From positions 1 through 64,000 of the forward strand of contig JAKFBU010000067.1 in assembly GCA_036676985.1 (NCBI GenBank): a DNA stretch of 64,000 nt, given 5' to 3'. The notes under the pieces are model-generated. The model made no database searches. It was given only the letters and a program-made list of their open reading frames with translations, and was not told the DNA's origin. The number at the start of each line of letters is the position of its first letter. Position 1 is the stretch's first letter. Position numbers and translations under genes: made by a program. Below are positions 6,154-45,710 of this stretch, in pieces. The DNA comes from Candidatus Sericytochromatia bacterium. Its GTDB lineage: Bacteria > Cyanobacteriota > Sericytochromatia > S15B-MN24 > UBA4093.

Positions 6154-7047
6154 ATGGATCGTAAGTCCCGTGCCGCCCTCCTCTCTGTCGCCTCCAACAC
6201 CGGCCTCGTCGGCCTCAAGCTCGGCGTGGGCCTCTTCACGGGCTCGGTCGGCGTCCTGTCGGAGGCCATCCACAGCGCCATCGACCTCCTGGCGGCAGGC
6301 ATGGCCTTCTTCGCCGTACGCGCCGCGAGCAAGCCCGCCGACGAGGATCACGCCTACGGGCACGGCAAGTACGAGAACCTGAGCGGCATGCTCGAGGCCG
6401 CCCTCATCTTCGTGGCGGCCGTGCTCATCGCCTTCGAGGCCGTCGACCACATCCGCCATGCGGCGCCGCCGCCTGTCGTGGACCTGGGCCTCTGGGTCAT
6501 GGCCGCGAGCTCGGGCGTCAACTTCGTCGTGTCCCGCTACCTCTTCAAGGTGGCCCGCGAGGAGGACTCGGCGGCCCTCGAGGCCGACGCCCACCACCTC
6601 TCGACCGACGTCTATACGAGCCTGGGCATCTTCGCGGGCCTCCTGCTCGTCAAGGTCACGGGCCTCGGCGTCTTCGACGCCCTGACGGCACTCGGCGTGG
6701 CCGTCCTCATCTCCCGGATCGCCTGGGACATCTTCGCCCACTCCACGGGCATCCTGCTCGACACGAGCCTGCCCACCGAGGAGCGGGCCGAAATCGAGCG
6801 CATCCTCGCCGATCACACGCCGCCCCTGATCGACTACCACGACCTGCGCACCCGCAAGTCGGGCGCCCACCGCCACGTGGACGTGCACCTGACGGTGCCC
6901 GCCGAGATCACGGCGGGCGAGGCTCATGCGATCGCCGAACAGATCGAACGCGCCATCGGTGAGGCCCTGCCCAACACCCAGGTCATCACCCATGTGGACG
7001 TGGGGGGCGTGGACGCCCTCACCGGCCGCCCCTGGCGCAGCGACTAG
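6154..7047 (+). CDS. Cation diffusion facilitator (FieF-like) transporter
   Basis: EAIHSAID, HAYGHGKYE, ADAHHLSTD motifs and C-terminal ZT-dimer-like region. Confidence 0.92.
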   Translation: MDRKSRAALLSVASNTGLVGLKLGVGLFTGSVGVLSEAIHSAIDLLAAGMAFFAVRAASKPADEDHAYGHGKYENLSGMLEAALIFVAAVLIAFEAVDHIRHAAPPPVVDLGLWVMAASSGVNFVVSRYLFKVAREEDSAALEADAHHLSTDVYTSLGIFAGLLLVKVTGLGVFDALTALGVAVLISRIAWDIFAHSTGILLDTSLPTEERAEIERILADHTPPLIDYHDLRTRKSGAHRHVDVHLTVPAEITAGEAHAIAEQIERAIGEALPNTQVITHVDVGGVDALTGRPWRSD

Positions 7048-13704: not shown

Positions 13705-14202
13705 CTACATGAAGAAGTAGCGGAGCCCGAACTCGTAGTTGACGCCACCGGCCCCGCCCGACAGGGGCTGGAGGTAGCCGACGCCGAGCAAGAGGCCCAC
13801 GTTGGGCATGGGCATGAGCTGATAGCCCACGTTGCCGAACACGCCGGTGCTGGTGGGGGTGTAGCTGACGCCCGCGCCCAGGTATGGCCCACCGGCCAGG
13901 GCCATGCCGGGCATGGGCATGTGGAACTGGATGGCCGGCGCCACGCCGAAGGCTCCGGTCGGCGTCAGACCGGCCTGGAGGTCCAGCGACATGTTGGGCG
14001 AGGGGTTCACGATGAGGTCGAGGCCCGTGAATCCGAGGCCGTTACCGGCCTTGTAGCCGATGCCGACCATGTTGCCGGTGCCGGCGGCCGGGGCCTGGGC
14101 GGTGCTGCGCGAGGTCCGCATCTGGGCGCTGGCGGGGACCTGCAGGGCCATCACCACGGTGCCGGCCACGAGCAGGGAGCTGAGAAGCTTGACGTGAGTC
14201 AT
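13705..14202 (-). CDS. Small outer-membrane beta-barrel-like protein
   Basis: SD AAGGAG, signal peptide ending ASA, PYLGAGVSY, C-terminal FGLRYFFM. Confidence 0.75.
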   Translation of the reverse strand: MTHVKLLSSLLVAGTVVMALQVPASAQMRTSRSTAQAPAAGTGNMVGIGYKAGNGLGFTGLDLIVNPSPNMSLDLQAGLTPTGAFGVAPAIQFHMPMPGMALAGGPYLGAGVSYTPTSTGVFGNVGYQLMPMPNVGLLLGVGYLQPLSGGAGGVNYEFGLRYFFM

Positions 14203-14616
14203 GAGGGCATCTCCTTTGCTTGGTAGGGTCAACGTCGAGGGCGAACGGTATCCCCCCTGTATAGCCGACCTCTCCAAGACGAGCAAGTGTTCGCCAGAAG
14301 CGATGCCATCGCGCCGGTTCGAGCGATTGAGCGGGCGTCCGAGCCGGGGCCGACGAGACGCGCCCCGGCCCGGAAACCCGTTGATGCTCAGGACCCGATG
14401 GCATCTGCCATCAGACTCCGACGTTAAGCCTTTCGGTCGCAGATCGCAATCGTCGTTTCGACGTCAAGGCGGAGTCGGAGAATGGCGGACAGGGGCCAAT
14501 CCGACGTGCCGCCGCCCGTGCCCACCCCAATCCTCCGCTTCCATGTTGCCTATTCCGACGCCAGCCATTTAGATGGCGCCACCATGGTGGCCCTCTCCAG
14601 CGGAAGGAGGAGTCCG

Positions 14617-14922
14617 ATGAAAGTTGCTCGAGCCAGCCGACACGCGAGTCTCGTCCTGCTGACCGGGCTGTTGGCCGCGTGTAGCACGGGGCCCACTCAG
14701 CCGACCGGAGGAGAGCCGCCCAAGGCGGCCTATCAGACGCAGCAACTCACGTCCTATCCGCCGTTTGGATCGGTCTCTCCGGGCGACTACCAGGCGGCAC
14801 GCCAAAGCGCCTGCCGACGCTACTGCGCGGGCTTCTCTTACACCTCGCGGCGCTGGTACCTCATGCAGGGTTGCATCCGGCGCTGCATGACCGGAGGACC
14901 CACGGACCAGTTCGCTTACTGA
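14617..14922 (+). CDS. Small lipoprotein with YQTQQ motif and CX3C-X15-CX3C C-terminus
   Basis: Strong SD AAGGAGG, lipobox LAAC, AAYQTQQ, CRRYC...CIRRC. Confidence 0.75.
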   Translation: MKVARASRHASLVLLTGLLAACSTGPTQPTGGEPPKAAYQTQQLTSYPPFGSVSPGDYQAARQSACRRYCAGFSYTSRRWYLMQGCIRRCMTGGPTDQFAY

Positions 14923-15189: not shown

Positions 15190-16251
15190 TTAGTTGCGGT
15201 CGAGACTTCCGTTGCATGGGGTAATGGCAATCCCACGAGGAAGGTTGCCAACGGGTACGGTGGCAATGACTGCGTTCGTACGGGTATCAATGACCGAAAC
15301 GGTGTTGTCACTGCTATTTGAAACGTAGGCTCGGTCCCCGTCCTGGGTGGTATCAACGCCGAAGGGTTGGGTCCCAACCGGGATGGTCGCCATCACGCCG
15401 TCGGTTTTGGTGTTGATGACCGTTACGGTGTTGCTACCGATGTTTGGCACATAGGCGCTTTGCCCATCCAGTGGGATCTCGACCTCGATCGGGGCTAAGC
15501 CGGTCGGGACGGTGGCGACCACGGTGTTGGACTTGGTATCGATGACCGTTACCGTGGTTTGGCCGCTGTTGGCGACATAAGCGCGGTGTTCGAGATGGGT
15601 GAACGCTACGCCGAAGGGTTGGAGGCCCACAGGAATGGTGGCGGTGACGGCATTGGTCTTGGTATCGATGACCGAGACGGTGTTGCTGTTGCGATTGGTC
15701 ACATAAGCTAGTTGGCCGTTCCAGGTGACAGCCACATCGATCGGAAAGGCCCCGACCGGGATGGTGTCCACGACCGTATTGGTCTGGGTCTCGATAACCG
15801 ATACCGTGTTACTGGTCAAATTCGTGACGTACGCAAACTTGCCGTTAGGCGTGAGGTCAATCCCTCTGGGATTAACGCCTACCGGAATGGTGGCCTGGAC
15901 GGTGTTGGTCTTGGTCTCGATCACGGTAACCGTATCTCCACCCTGGTTGGTCACGTAGGCTAGCTTCGCATCAGGCGTGATGGCGGCATCGACCGGGCCC
16001 ACTCCAGTCGGAACGGTCGCGACTACCGCGTTGGTCCGGGTATCGATGACCGAAACCGTGTTGCTGTTGAAATTCGTGACATACGCGAAAGAAGGACAGG
16101 ACGTTCCCTTGCCCCCGCCCGCGGCGGCGAGATCGACGCCCGCTTGCCCGGCGGCTCTGTCCCGGACCGCATTCGGGATGGCCTGACATCCCGCGAGCAC
16201 GCAAACGGCCAGTTGCAGGCTTATGGACAGCCGAAACCAAGGACGAGCCAT
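15190..16251 (-). CDS. YVTN-type seven-bladed beta-propeller lipoprotein
   Basis: Seven ~42-aa AYVTN..SNTVSVID..TN.V.ATIPVG..P repeats; lipobox LAGC; SD GGAGGT. Confidence 0.92.
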   Translation of the reverse strand: MARPWFRLSISLQLAVCVLAGCQAIPNAVRDRAAGQAGVDLAAAGGGKGTSCPSFAYVTNFNSNTVSVIDTRTNAVVATVPTGVGPVDAAITPDAKLAYVTNQGGDTVTVIETKTNTVQATIPVGVNPRGIDLTPNGKFAYVTNLTSNTVSVIETQTNTVVDTIPVGAFPIDVAVTWNGQLAYVTNRNSNTVSVIDTKTNAVTATIPVGLQPFGVAFTHLEHRAYVANSGQTTVTVIDTKSNTVVATVPTGLAPIEVEIPLDGQSAYVPNIGSNTVTVINTKTDGVMATIPVGTQPFGVDTTQDGDRAYVSNSSDNTVSVIDTRTNAVIATVPVGNLPRGIAITPCNGSLDRN

Positions 16252-16633
16252 CGGTCACACCTCCCTGTGAACAAAAAACGAACCAACGCATGCTAGCAAG
16301 CAATGGTTTGCGCCTCGATAGTCGTTTTGCCGAAGTCGCCTGTCAAAGTCAGCAGCGTGTGCCGACAACGCCGTCCGGAGGGTGCGTTCGTCCTTGAACG
16401 AGCCCGGACCGAAACCGCATGGCAGCCCGGTGAAAACCCAGCGGGCTGAGTGGTTGTTTTAGTGCACTAGGCCGGACGGTCTTCGAACCTGCTTGGCCGA
16501 GCTATCCGACTGGCAGTGCATTCCCTCCGTCTCACCTGGAAGCAAGATCCTGCTCAGTCCGCCTTTCGAAAGGTACTCGGTTTCCGATGGGGACGCCTTG
16601 CATGGGCTGTCTTGCCTCGCATACAGCCAAGGG

Positions 16634-16662
16634 TTGACGATAGGACTAACTAGTACTATTCT
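16634..16662 (+). promoter_or_regulatory. Sigma70-like promoter of doxX
   Basis: TTGACG-N17-TATTCT upstream of 16732. Confidence 0.6.
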
Positions 16663-16731
16663 CAAGATTGTTCGACGTAGAACGATTTTGTTCGTCTCGC
16701 GGCATGCTGCCGGTGCATAAGGAGAATAGTC

Positions 16732-17232
16732 ATGGCGACCCAAGTGGACACCCTCCCATCGCCCACTCTGGCGGGCACCCTGTTTCAAAAACTTCTGGCC
16801 ACGGACAACGACCACGGCGCCCTGGTGGCCCGCATTGCCCTCGGCCTGGTCATCCTGCCACATGGGGCCCAAAAAGCCCTGGGCTGGTTTGGCGGTTACG
16901 GCTTCGAAGGCACCATGGGTTTCTTCACCCAGCAGATGGGCATTCCGGCGCCGCTCGCGCTGCTCGCGATCGCGGCCGAGTTCCTGGGCGCGCTCGGCCT
17001 CATCACCGGATTGCTCGGCCGTGTCTCGGCCTTCGGGGTGGGCGTGACGATGCTGGTGGCGGCGCTGATGGCCCACCTGCCCAACGGCTTCTTCATGAAC
17101 TGGTTCGGCGCCCAGAAGGGCGAAGGCATCGAGTACTTCGTGCTCGCCATCGGCCTTGCGCTCGTCGTGATGGTGAAGGGCGCCGGCGCGTACTCGCTCG
17201 ACCGAGTGATGGCGAAGCGGACCGAACGTTAA
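16732..17232 (+). CDS. DoxX family membrane protein
   Basis: HGAQKALGWFGGYG, AEFLG, GIEY and GAGAYSLD motifs. Confidence 0.92.
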   Translation: MATQVDTLPSPTLAGTLFQKLLATDNDHGALVARIALGLVILPHGAQKALGWFGGYGFEGTMGFFTQQMGIPAPLALLAIAAEFLGALGLITGLLGRVSAFGVGVTMLVAALMAHLPNGFFMNWFGAQKGEGIEYFVLAIGLALVVMVKGAGAYSLDRVMAKRTER

Positions 17233-31521: not shown

Positions 31522-31752
31522 ATGATGCGCCGAGTTCGACGGAGCCCGAGGGCTCTCATGTCTATCGCTTGCCTTCTGGTGGGGGTGATGGGCGGCTGCC
31601 AGTCCCCCCCGTCGTCGGCCACCCGGCCCAATGGCGCCCCGCCGAGGGTCCTCGATCCCGACGGGGAGTGGCGGTTCAAGGCCTATCGCAACTATTCCCC
31701 GTCCCCGGCGGCGTCGGCCTCCGCCCGGCCGGCGTCGGGGCCGAGACGCTAG
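31522..31752 (+). CDS. Possible small lipoprotein
   Basis: Basic N-terminus, hydrophobic stretch, MGGC; short and low complexity. Confidence 0.45.
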   Translation: MMRRVRRSPRALMSIACLLVGVMGGCQSPPSSATRPNGAPPRVLDPDGEWRFKAYRNYSPSPAASASARPASGPRR

Positions 31753-43619: not shown

Positions 43620-43853
43620 TGCAAAAACGAGCGGACGTTCATCGGGGCGGCCAAGTTCGTTTGGCCGCCCTGTCCGTGGTCACGGTGCCCCGCCATGTGG
43701 CACACACGGAAGGGGACCGCTGACAAAGACCACGAGGCATGCTAGCTTTGGTTCAATCCACGCGGCAACGATTCTCTACACATGAGGCCGCCTCCGGCCG
43801 GAGGCAGACATACTAATGACATGGCTCCCACGTCGATGGGGGAAAGGATGGTT

Positions 43854-45710
43854 ATGAGGAATCAAGCGAGGAGACTGACGGTCGCCTTGACGGCCGTGAG
43901 CTTGCTGGCGCTCGCCGGCTGCGCGCCGCAGGGCGAGAAGCCCGCCGGAAACGGAGGCGCCAAGGACGACCGGATCGCGCAGGATGCGGCGCAACGCACC
44001 TTCGTGCCCCCTGGGCAGCTCGACGAGTACTACCTGTTCTATTCGGGCGGCCATTCCGGCCAGGTCTACGTGGCGGGCCTTCCGTCCATGCGCCACATCG
44101 CAACCATCCCGGTCTTCGCTCCGTATTCGGCCACCGGCTACGGCTTCGACGAAGAGACCAAGGAGATGCTGGGGGGCTACACGTGGGGCGACCTGCACCA
44201 CCCCTCGCTCTCCAAGACCAACGGCGACTACGACGGCCGGTGGCTCTTTGTCAACGACAACGCCAACAACCGCGTGGGCCGCATCGACCTGCGGGACATG
44301 AAGACCCACCAGATCATCAAGATCCCCAACATCTCGGGCAACCACGGCTCGAGCTTCGTCACCAACAACTCCGAGTACGTCCTCTCGGCCTCTCGCTTCT
44401 CGGCCCCGCTCGCCGGCGGCTGGGCGCCCGTCAGCGAGTACAAGGCGAAGTACAAGGGCGTGGTCGCGGGCGTGAAGGTCGATCCGCAGACCGGCGCCAT
44501 GTCCAACGGCTGGCAGGTCATGATGCCGCCCTTCGACTTCGACCTGGGCAGCACGGGCAAGGGTCCCTCCGAGGGGTGGGCCTTCTGGACCTGCTACAAC
44601 TCGGAGCGCGCCACCGGCCGCCTGGAGGTCACGGCCTCCAAGAACCCCAAGGACTACGTGGTCGCGTGCAACTGGAAGGCCGCCGAGGCGGCCGTCAAGG
44701 CCGGCCAGGCGCAGATGGTCGGCGGCGTGCCCGTCATCGACCCCAAGAAGGTCCCGGGCGTGGTCTACCTGCTGCCCACGCCCTCGAGCCCGCATGGCGT
44801 GGACGTGACGCCCGACGGCAAGTACATGGCGGCCTCGGGCAAGCTCGCGCCGGTCGTTACCATCTTCGACTTCGAGAAGCTCCAGACGGCCATCCAGAAC
44901 AAGCAGTTCTCGGGTGACGAGGACGGCATCCCCGTCGTGAACTTCGAGGCCGTCAAGACCGCCGAGGTGCCCGTGGGCATGGGCCCCCTGCACACGGAGT
45001 ACGACGACCAGGGCAACGCTTACACCTCGCTCTTCCTGGAGAGCGCGGTGGCCAAGTGGAAGGTCGGCACCTGGGAGGTGCTCGACAAGATCCCCGTCGC
45101 CTACAACGTCGGTCACATGGTGGCCGCCGGCGGCAACGCGGCGCACCCGTACGGCAAGTACCTGGTGTCCATGAACAAGCTTTCGAAGGGCCGTCACATC
45201 ACGACGGGGCCGTCGCAACCCGAGAGCTCCCAGCTCATCGACATCTCGGGCAACAAGATGACCATGCTCTACGAGGCCTTCACGGAGCCCGAGCCCCACT
45301 ACGCCCAGATCATCAAGGTGGATGCCGTCAAGCCCATCGAGGTCTACCCCAAGGCCGAGAACAAGCATGCCAATGCCATCTGGAACCCCAACGACGCCAA
45401 GATCACGCGGAACGGCAACAACGTCGAGATCAAGATGTTCACCATCCGCACCTTCTTCGCGCCGACCGAGATCCCCGTCAACCAGGGCGACCGGGTGACG
45501 ATCCACGTGACCAACGCCGAGCAGACCCGCGACGAGATCCACGGCCTCGGCATCAACGAGTACAACCTGAACGTGGTCATCGACCCGGGCGAGACCAAGA
45601 CCGTCACGTTCGTGGCGGACAAGCCAGGTGTCTTCCCCTTCTACTGCACGAACTTCTGTTCGGCGATGCACCAGGAGATGCAGGGATACCTGACGGTCAA
45701 GCCCCGCTAG
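43854..45710 (+). CDS. nosZ: Clade II (Sec-dependent) nitrous-oxide reductase, lipoprotein
   Basis: SGGHSG; CuZ His motifs DLHHP, GNHG, SPHG, GPLHT, NVGH, EPHY; CuA IHG...CTNFCSAMHQEM; lipobox LAGC. Confidence 0.97.
   Translation: MRNQARRLTVALTAVSLLALAGCAPQGEKPAGNGGAKDDRIAQDAAQRTFVPPGQLDEYYLFYSGGHSGQVYVAGLPSMRHIATIPVFAPYSATGYGFDEETKEMLGGYTWGDLHHPSLSKTNGDYDGRWLFVNDNANNRVGRIDLRDMKTHQIIKIPNISGNHGSSFVTNNSEYVLSASRFSAPLAGGWAPVSEYKAKYKGVVAGVKVDPQTGAMSNGWQVMMPPFDFDLGSTGKGPSEGWAFWTCYNSERATGRLEVTASKNPKDYVVACNWKAAEAAVKAGQAQMVGGVPVIDPKKVPGVVYLLPTPSSPHGVDVTPDGKYMAASGKLAPVVTIFDFEKLQTAIQNKQFSGDEDGIPVVNFEAVKTAEVPVGMGPLHTEYDDQGNAYTSLFLESAVAKWKVGTWEVLDKIPVAYNVGHMVAAGGNAAHPYGKYLVSMNKLSKGRHITTGPSQPESSQLIDISGNKMTMLYEAFTEPEPHYAQIIKVDAVKPIEVYPKAENKHANAIWNPNDAKITRNGNNVEIKMFTIRTFFAPTEIPVNQGDRVTIHVTNAEQTRDEIHGLGINEYNLNVVIDPGETKTVTFVADKPGVFPFYCTNFCSAMHQEMQGYLTVKPR

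Follow-up and report, generated by a model that had tools for sequence, protein, structure and literature searches.

A conserved small lipoprotein of a Sericytochromatia bacterium with a predicted cysteine-braced helical hairpin, and its probable twin-CXnC relatives

Does a short open reading frame (ORF) of a Candidatus Sericytochromatia bacterium encode a bacterial counterpart of the plant alpha-hairpinins, or a different kind of protein built on a similar cysteine pattern? The ORF in question (nt 14617 – 14922, + strand) lies in the first 64,000 nt of contig JAKFBU010000067.1, a stretch that was analysed as a whole and is referred to here as the window, and specifies a protein of 101 amino acids (aa). 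An earlier note described this protein as a lipoprotein with a lipobox, a Pro-rich linker, the junction sequence YQTQQ and a tail of the form CRRYC...CIRRC, encoded 12 kb from an array of lipoproteins with the same junction, and all of these elements were read at nt 14617 – 14922, with the array (nt 827 – 2623) 12.0 kb away. It was also proposed that the protein is the fourth member of the array family, that an unrelated payload had been placed on a shared junction, and that this payload may be a hairpinin-like peptide. The answer that we lean towards is somewhat different, namely that the protein is a tethered, cationic, cysteine-braced helical-hairpin lipoprotein, representing the CX3C variant of a family that is new and confined to Sericytochromatia.

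The ORF starts with ATG and ends with a stop codon at nt 14920 – 14922. A Shine-Dalgarno-like sequence, GGAAGGAGG (nt 14601 – 14609, +), ends 7 bases 5' of the ATG, and paralogues have similar GGAGG boxes. Residues 1 – 22, MKVARASRHASLVLLTGLLAAC (nt 14617 – 14682), form a predicted lipoprotein signal peptide, with K2, R5 and R8 in the n-region, LVLLTGLL in the h-region and the lipobox L-A-A-C, of which Cys22 would be the lipidated residue. As far as can be judged from the translation, this agrees with the usual make-up of bacterial lipoprotein signals (charged n-region, hydrophobic h-region and lipobox [LVI][ASTVI][GAS]C). Between the signal peptide and YQTQQ sits the stretch STGPTQPTGGEPPKAA, a Pro/Thr/Gly-rich tether read directly from the sequence (residues 23 – 38, nt 14683 – 14730). 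The junction motif YQTQQ (residues 39 – 43, nt 14731 – 14745), which was recovered by the family motif scans and the alignment described below, begins 17 residues past Cys22. The cysteine motif, CRRYC-AGFSYTSRRWYLMQG-CIRRC, has the form CX3C-X15-CX3C (nt 14812 – 14886), and the protein ends with the tail M-T-G-G-P-T-D-Q-F-A-Y (nt 14887 – 14919). A longer gene call of 146 aa (P0001), with its ATG at nt 14482, was judged less likely, because the start of the homologues, and so of all five CX3C proteins, corresponds to nt 14617 and the Shine-Dalgarno-like box is found there.

Comparison with its homologues identifies nt 14617 – 14922 as a genuine, conserved gene for a small lipoprotein. When 1.84 billion representatives were searched exhaustively with HMMER, two relatives emerged, P0002 (107 aa, 57% identity in this search) and P0003 (105 aa, 63% identity in this search), both at E = 1e-26; a third, P0007 (101 aa), came from a compost metagenome by way of a profile search. 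A fourth homologue, of 91 aa, was found in genome G008 (L008:1489 – 1764) by a six-frame scan of 41 related genomes (E = 1.3e-4; BLASTP 2e-7). Compared together, these four are 33 – 59% identical to the window protein, and they retain the lipobox and all four cysteines of the twin motif. In the alignment of the five proteins the lipidated Cys, the four hairpin Cys (C66, C70, C86 and C90), R62, G93 and F99 are invariant, as is QTQ.Q, and the G008 protein additionally carries SYSVQQY a few residues further on. The T-G-G and the near-end aromatic residue of the tail are conserved. Both CX3C spacings are fixed in all five, while the number of residues between the motifs is 15 in the window protein and 12, 16, 19 and 20 in the homologues. 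Across the five, the net charge of the domain is +4 to +8 and its Arg content 18 – 22%.

These data bear on the alternative that the ORF is non-functional, having arisen by chance in GC-rich DNA or being a paralogue in decay. The G+C content of its third codon positions (GC3) is 0.75 in the best stop-free frame, compared to about 0.9 in most genes of the window (68% G+C overall); the array genes have a similarly low GC3 (0.70 – 0.73). The contigs of metatranscriptome run X18 fall on nt 13853 – 14399 and nt 16043 – 16143 and none on the ORF, but contigs cannot show absence. The twin-CX3C pattern alone is frequent in GC-rich frames, with 131 matches in the 45,216 stop-to-stop segments (50 aa or longer; 7.13 million residues, all frames) into which the 4.68-Mb genome, G000, was divided for scanning. 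On the other side stand the four homologues with their invariant cysteines, lipobox and motif, the Shine-Dalgarno box, and a letter-identical copy of the ORF in contigs of DNA run X4, which comes from a second study. We regard the absence of function as exceedingly improbable. A scan for promoters and terminators gave 0 sites and is uninformative in DNA of 68% G+C.

Further searches added no other relative of the CX3C type. A word-index search returned the window protein only, and two more HMMER matches (P0004 and P0005) were dismissed as spurious, being repeat proteins of 678 and 253 aa without the Cys motif. In the six-frame scan, 34 of the 41 genomes gave a match at E ≤ 1, of which that in G008 is the sole credible one; the other places inspected or range-read were signal-peptide or low-complexity matches, or contain stops. 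Of the weak matches in relatives, G009:C63 (E = 0.003) was discarded as its translation has stops and no Cys motif, the weak matches in G035 and G034 reach only residue 49 or 36, and that in G020 (E = 0.009) contains one TGA. A scan of metagenome contigs gave 31 pattern matches with no relative among them, and longer or fused forms were searched for and none found. Pfam returned no family for the window protein at E ≤ 0.1, nor for P0002 and P0003 at E ≤ 1, and a single weak, unrelated match for the G008 protein (DUF6491, E = 0.04). NCBIfam gave no family and the ESM Atlas no usable match.

Structure prediction for a helix-loop-helix was among the checks suggested in the earlier note. This fold was indeed predicted, with moderate confidence, by AlphaFold2 run on a four-sequence alignment. 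The model is disordered up to about residue 51, followed by helix 1 (residues 55 – 73, nt 14779 – 14835) with the first CX3C (C66 and C70, nt 14812 – 14826), a turn at residues 74 – 76, and helix 2 (residues 77 – 92, nt 14845 – 14892) with the second CX3C (C86 and C90, nt 14872 – 14886). The predicted local distance difference test (pLDDT) score is 62 – 79 in the helices and below 50 for residues 31 – 51. The Arg/aromatic-rich inter-motif stretch (residues 71 – 85, nt 14827 – 14871) contains, according to the model and the comparison of homologues, the turn and a conserved S/T-R-x-W. In helix 2, residues M83, C86, I87 and C90 all point to the hydrophobic side (hydrophobic moment 1.07). The payload is, on this modelling, probably a helix-turn-helix with one CX3C per helix. 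Comparison of the model with the PDB by Foldseek gave nothing at E ≤ 0.001, the vicilin-buried peptide-8 (6o3q), an alpha-hairpinin, appearing as a weak row at E = 6.7. A Foldseek-independent fold search (VIA) retrieved generic hairpins only (Z ≤ 3.9), and the best match in a profile search of PDB sequences was a viral VP1 at E = 0.18.

The junction motif connects this protein to a wider group of small lipoproteins. The pattern Y[EQ][VT]QQ, the narrowest that spans both the array and the window protein, occurs only five times in the scanned residues of G000: in the three array proteins, the window protein and one more small lipoprotein, so that the shared junction that had been claimed is borne out. 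When the broader [YF].[VTI]QQ was sought within 90 residues past a lipobox-like pattern, 10 matches were found in the 45,216 segments against 0.21 expected, one of which, in a 393-aa protein of C26, may be due to chance. The motif typically lies about 15 – 45 residues past the lipidated Cys, and one member repeats LQVQQ about 80 residues in. The three array proteins (nt 827 – 1393, 1491 – 2090 and 2153 – 2623, all on the + strand) are Cys-less lipoproteins in which the lipobox and an Ala/Pro tether precede TYEVQQY or TYQVQQY; stretches rich in Gly, Pro and Arg come next, and these lead into long, Arg-rich predicted helices that contain RMARW. A Cys-less, Tyr/Arg/Gly-rich lipoprotein with the same lipobox-tether-Y.VQQY module is encoded elsewhere in G000 (C41:116959 – 117420, - strand). 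No Pfam family was matched by any of these four Cys-less proteins.

The same scan uncovered small lipoproteins of the form CX6C-Xn-CX6C (C37:5645 – 5998, C47:59858 – 60145 and C47:54599 – 55030), to which a CX6C profile added a copy in tandem with the second of these (C47:59476 – 59796), a triplet on C18 and C26:183208 – 184293, the last of which is without the [YF]x[VT]QQ motif. Eight twin-CX6C copies were read in G000 in all (one on C37, three on C47, three on C18 and one on C26), and these paralogues too end in aromatic-rich tails. The tandem triplet (C18:14469 – 15764, -, equivalent to L034:6470 – 7705, -) is located downstream of an MHYT-PAS histidine kinase gene, and its middle copy has a single in-frame TGA between tether and hairpin, for which a pseudogene, read-through or an assembly error are possible explanations. 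The CX6C profile, applied to 47 genomes of the class, finds matches in five (G000, G001, G002, G005 and G008), all in the window's own family, and the five new members from other genomes that were translated all have a lipobox, [YF]x[VT]QQ and the twin CX6C. AlphaFold2, run on an alignment of nine CX6C sequences, predicts helices at residues 49 – 68 and 71 – 87 with a pLDDT of 86 – 89, the cysteines being at 53, 60, 76 and 83, and a turn at most about 1.5 residues off centre for C1–C4/C2–C3 pairing.

The twin-CX6C proteins are what links the window protein to the array. Their profile matches the array proteins at E = 7e-5 to 1e-3 in the 45,216 segments, and a CX6C-only profile, with no CX3C sequence in it, matches the CX3C protein of G008 at E = 3.3e-4. 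The connection between the window protein and the array is drawn from the short motif together with these transitive matches, via the twin-CX6C paralogues and the G008 homologue. Direct tests fail, and a search of its own genome with the 101-aa protein gave no array match at E ≤ 10; therefore membership of a superfamily of the type lipobox, tether, [YF]x[VT]QQ and twin-CXnC hairpin, which we consider likely from these sequence comparisons, rests on architecture, the rare motif and the transitive profile links. An apparent juxtaposition by MAFFT of RMARWQA in the array with SRRWYLMQ in the hairpin was dropped, as hhalign did not back it. The idea of a fourth family member can thus be kept insofar as motif and transitive profile links are concerned, although direct homology to the array is undetectable. 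The idea of an unrelated payload swapped onto the junction is not supported, since most relatives carry a four-cysteine (twin CX6C) hairpin, of which the CX3C payload would be a spacing variant, and it is the Cys-less array proteins that are the exception in the superfamily. About 20 family proteins came to light in all, from 5.8 billion clusters, from 1.84 billion representatives and from the 47 genomes of the class, and by its profile matches the superfamily appears to be confined to one family of Sericytochromatia and to have gone unnamed until now. Among the titles and abstracts listed by literature searches, there was no bacterial hairpinin-like or twin-CX6C lipoprotein family, and nothing on lipoproteins of Sericytochromatia.

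What the cysteines do is suggested by the neighbours of the twin-CX6C genes. In the case of C47b, two thioredoxin-fold genes (AhpC-TSA/Redoxin) in the same orientation begin 79 bp past the gene, with products that have an N-terminal membrane anchor and the motif CPHC or CQHC, and in G008 (L037) and G002 (L041) the CX6C gene is likewise directly upstream of a gene for a membrane-anchored CPHC thioredoxin. Three TlpA-like genes occur in G000, two of them at this C47 hairpin locus; the third, with WCPPC, is not next to a hairpin gene. The locus as a whole (C47:53308 – 62203, equivalent to L030:6309 – 15203) comprises 9 kb with the two CPHC/CQHC thioredoxins (L030:6984 – 7520 and 6309 – 6950, -), three twin-CX6C genes and a fused ABC (ATP-binding cassette) exporter of 619 aa directly upstream of two of the twin-CX6C genes. 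CPHC is the active site of the oxidase DsbA. As the pairing with thioredoxins is conserved, the family cysteines appear to be tied to thiol-disulfide chemistry, in a direction (oxidation or reduction) that the pairing does not settle. The spacings i+4 (CX3C) and i+7 (CX6C) each place the two cysteines of a helix on one face. Two inter-helix braces are favoured over one metal centre, because the CX6C cysteines are two turns (about 10 Å) apart, too far for a single Cys4 site.

Several observations weigh against a disulfide-braced hairpin belonging to such a family. The model of the CX3C hairpin is of moderate confidence only (mean pLDDT 57.5), and its turn at residues 74 – 76 is about 3 residues N-terminal of residue 78, the centre for symmetric C1–C4/C2–C3 pairing. 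Within the genome, the CX3C profile picks up no paralogue (its next match is at E = 0.054, and C47a is at E = 1.2), and hhalign comparison of the mature parts is not significant, with P = 0.04 – 0.09 for CX3C against CX6C, P = 0.27 for CX3C against the array and P = 0.008 for CX6C against the array over 11 motif columns. Neither the window gene nor the locus of the G008 homologue (L017) has a thioredoxin neighbour or any synteny shared with the other. In G000, which is rated 100% complete, no match to VKOR, DsbB or Thioredoxin_4 and no exported DsbA was found, the single strong DSBA-family match being without a signal peptide. The 353 predicted lipoproteins, from crude gene and signal predictions, show no bias to even numbers of cysteines (one Cys in 106, two in 43).

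The last two points, and the thioredoxin-fold genes adjoining the paralogues, would suit a metal-binding role, in which TlpA-like thioredoxins keep the thiols reduced and the hairpin serves as a periplasmic metallochaperone or buffer for Cu(I) or Zn. In rhizobia, TlpA keeps the thiols of ScoI and CoxB reduced, and a gene resembling those of NosZ-type copper enzymes, as read from its sequence, is present in the window at 43.8 – 45.7 kb. The nos genes are, however, 29 kb distant, the thioredoxins next to the hairpin genes have CPHC or CQHC and not the WCPPC of the third paralogue, and in the alignment of the five CX3C proteins the cysteines are not accompanied by conserved His or Met ligands. 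With the CX6C cysteines about 10 Å apart along the helix, only two separate bis-Cys sites would fit. Metal binding therefore seems unlikely to us, if not negligibly so.

The strong DSBA-family match in G000 mentioned above, an oxidoreductase of the DsbA/FrnE family without a signal peptide (C27:15176 – 15763, -, equivalent to L032:1471 – 2160, -), has an in-frame TGA at the first Cys of CPWC. Read with TGA as selenocysteine (U), the motif becomes UPWC, and from its sequence this is probably a selenocysteine-containing DsbA-like protein.

The relationship to plant alpha-hairpinins can now be considered. According to the passages of PMC11591084 and PMC7191063 that define the group, these have the motif C1X3C2X4-20C3X3C4 and a helix-loop-helix held by C1–C4 and C2–C3 disulfides, and the passages of PMC7191063 on precursors describe a signal peptide followed by 2 – 12 modules, with or without a vicilin domain, which are cut by plant proteases. 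The cysteine pattern of the window protein fits the motif as worded in PMC11591084, its X15 (X12 – X20 in the homologues) falling within the published 4 – 20. As in EcAMP1, VhTI, BWI-2c, MBP-1 and the vicilin-buried peptides, the surface is cationic and Arg-rich and the origin secretory, and the model likewise predicts a helix-loop-helix with one CX3C per helix and unstructured tails. Unlike these peptides, however, the protein is bacterial, gave no sequence similarity or significant fold match to them in the PDB profile and fold searches, consists of a single module behind a lipobox signal and tether instead of a multi-module or vicilin precursor, and is probably retained on its lipid anchor. 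It does not appear to be a member of the plant alpha-hairpinin family. The likeness is convergent at best, and the structural working may be alike. The suggestion of a bacterial hairpinin-like peptide stands, accordingly, for the motif and the predicted fold, while no common descent was detected and the architecture of the precursor differs.

A defence peptide could nevertheless arise from such a protein if a protease cut near [YF]x[VT]QQ and released a cationic, amphipathic hairpin that is antimicrobial to competitors. The published motif and the Arg-rich, positively charged domain are in keeping with this, as are the conserved junction between tether and payload, the occurrence of fast-diverged paralogues in tandem arrays, the ABC exporter gene upstream of two of them and the non-significant match to the alpha-hairpinin 6o3q. 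But the lipid anchor argues for retention, nothing shows cleavage, no protease or immunity gene is conserved next to any member, and a Sec/lipoprotein signal makes an ABC exporter unnecessary; together with the lack of detected homology to plant hairpinins, this makes a released antimicrobial peptide improbable in our view. A related proposal is that of a tethered protease inhibitor like VhTI or BWI-2c, which would shield the envelope from a trypsin-like protease and use a loop Arg (R78/R79 of S/T-R-x-W) as its P1 residue. In the plant inhibitors the reactive Arg sits between the two CXXXC motifs, as stated in the relevant passages of PMC7191063, and S77 and the adjacent Arg are conserved in the four closest homologues. 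Arg is, however, abundant throughout the protein, so that a loop Arg is no specific signal, the loops differ in the G008 homologue and the CX6C paralogues, and no protease gene is linked. Inhibition of this kind is very unlikely.

Cysteine-stapled helical hairpins are known not only from plant defence peptides, but also from proteins of the mitochondrial intermembrane space and from animal toxins. The twin-CX3C small Tims and the twin-CX9C (CHCH) proteins resemble the present family, as modelled, in that antiparallel helices carry two CXnC motifs and reside in an oxidising compartment outside the cytoplasm. The spacing n varies within the superfamily in either case (3 or 6 in the Sericytochromatia proteins), and a gene for a dedicated thiol oxidoreductase may be close by. 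Tim8-Tim13 (3cjh_B, Z = 3.2) was among the generic hairpins retrieved by the fold search, with a Z not above background. Against this, Pfam gave no match to zf-Tim10_DDP or CHCH for the window protein, P0002, P0003 or the L008 protein, the window protein would be a Sec/lipoprotein substrate and not a Mia40 substrate, and no sign of a hexameric chaperone assembly was seen. The top, non-significant Foldseek rows of the CX6C model were animal toxins, acrorhagin I (6ux5) and neurotoxin B-IV (1vib), with template modelling scores of 0.55 – 0.61 on the target, a root-mean-square deviation of 1.8 – 1.9 Å and E = 4.7 – 8.9. These toxins are eukaryotic and differ in their Cys frameworks, and no homology is implied. 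Similar in general layout is the pilotin OutS/PulS of the type II secretion system, which the relevant passages of PMC3276575 describe as a lipid-anchored protein with a flexible linker at its N terminus and a small helical domain that needs a disulfide both to fold and to bind its partner. The window protein, as predicted, shares the anchor, the linker and a small all-helical domain, but the pilotin has four helices, one disulfide and secretin genes nearby, whereas the window protein has two predicted helices, four cysteines, no secretin neighbour and no sequence similarity.

The tethered hairpin that we favour would operate as follows. Lipidated at Cys22, the small envelope lipoprotein would carry, on a floppy tether of about 30 residues, a compact, strongly cationic helix-turn-helix knob whose two helices are joined through the four invariant cysteines, most likely, we infer, as disulfides C66–C90 and C70–C86. 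It would represent the CX3C branch of a lineage-specific superfamily in which other members use CX6C, both spacings giving the geometry of a cross-braced hairpin. Oxidation would probably be carried out by the membrane-anchored, TlpA-like CPHC thioredoxins encoded beside the twin-CX6C paralogues. The rigid, Arg/aromatic-rich knob may then bind an anionic component of the envelope, or a partner protein, in the periplasm or at the cell surface, remaining tethered rather than being freely released as a peptide. A bolder proposal, which we consider quite improbable as a whole, is that twin-CXnC lipoproteins and CPHC thioredoxins constitute a new envelope thiol-redox system that dispenses with DsbB, VKOR and exported DsbA, a bacterial counterpart of the twin-CXnC/Mia40 system, with the CX3C branch acting as a convergent alpha-hairpinin in defence or inhibition.

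This is a new, small family, yet one of narrow distribution, specific to a lineage within Sericytochromatia, the poorly known, non-photosynthetic sister group of the cyanobacteria. It is marked by a conserved junction motif and, for the CX6C genes of three genomes, by a CPHC thioredoxin gene that is conserved next to them. If the disulfides do exist, it would offer a handle on the oxidation of envelope proteins where DsbB and VKOR are lacking, and a compact scaffold that varies in nature, stapled at i+4 or i+7 and with loops of 12 – 22 residues. If the defence idea were true, it would provide the first bacterial analogue of the alpha-hairpinins.

The hairpin gene is monocistronic, with a divergent gene for an outer-membrane-protein-like product on one side and a convergent gene for a YncE-like beta-propeller lipoprotein on the other. 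The former (nt 13705 – 14199, -) specifies a small, Gly-rich, signal-peptide protein that ends in LRYFFM and resembles a small outer-membrane beta-barrel, with no Pfam match. The contigs of X18, a rhizosphere metatranscriptome, that cover nt 13853 – 14399 come from a relative, with 4 – 13 differing letters per contig. The gene for the seven-bladed YncE-like protein (nt 15190 – 16251, -; GC3 0.71) lies within a stretch of low G+C (nt 15190 – 16800; 0.57 – 0.61 compared to 0.68 for the window) that may be acquired DNA. Another small predicted lipoprotein of 75 aa, with the lipobox VMGGC and neither the QQ motif nor Cys pairs, is encoded at nt 31525 – 31752 (+). The NosZ-type-like gene mentioned above (nt 43821 – 45710, +), so classified from its sequence, has a product of about 620 aa with a lipobox, and several genes of the same orientation come after it, up to about 49.9 kb.

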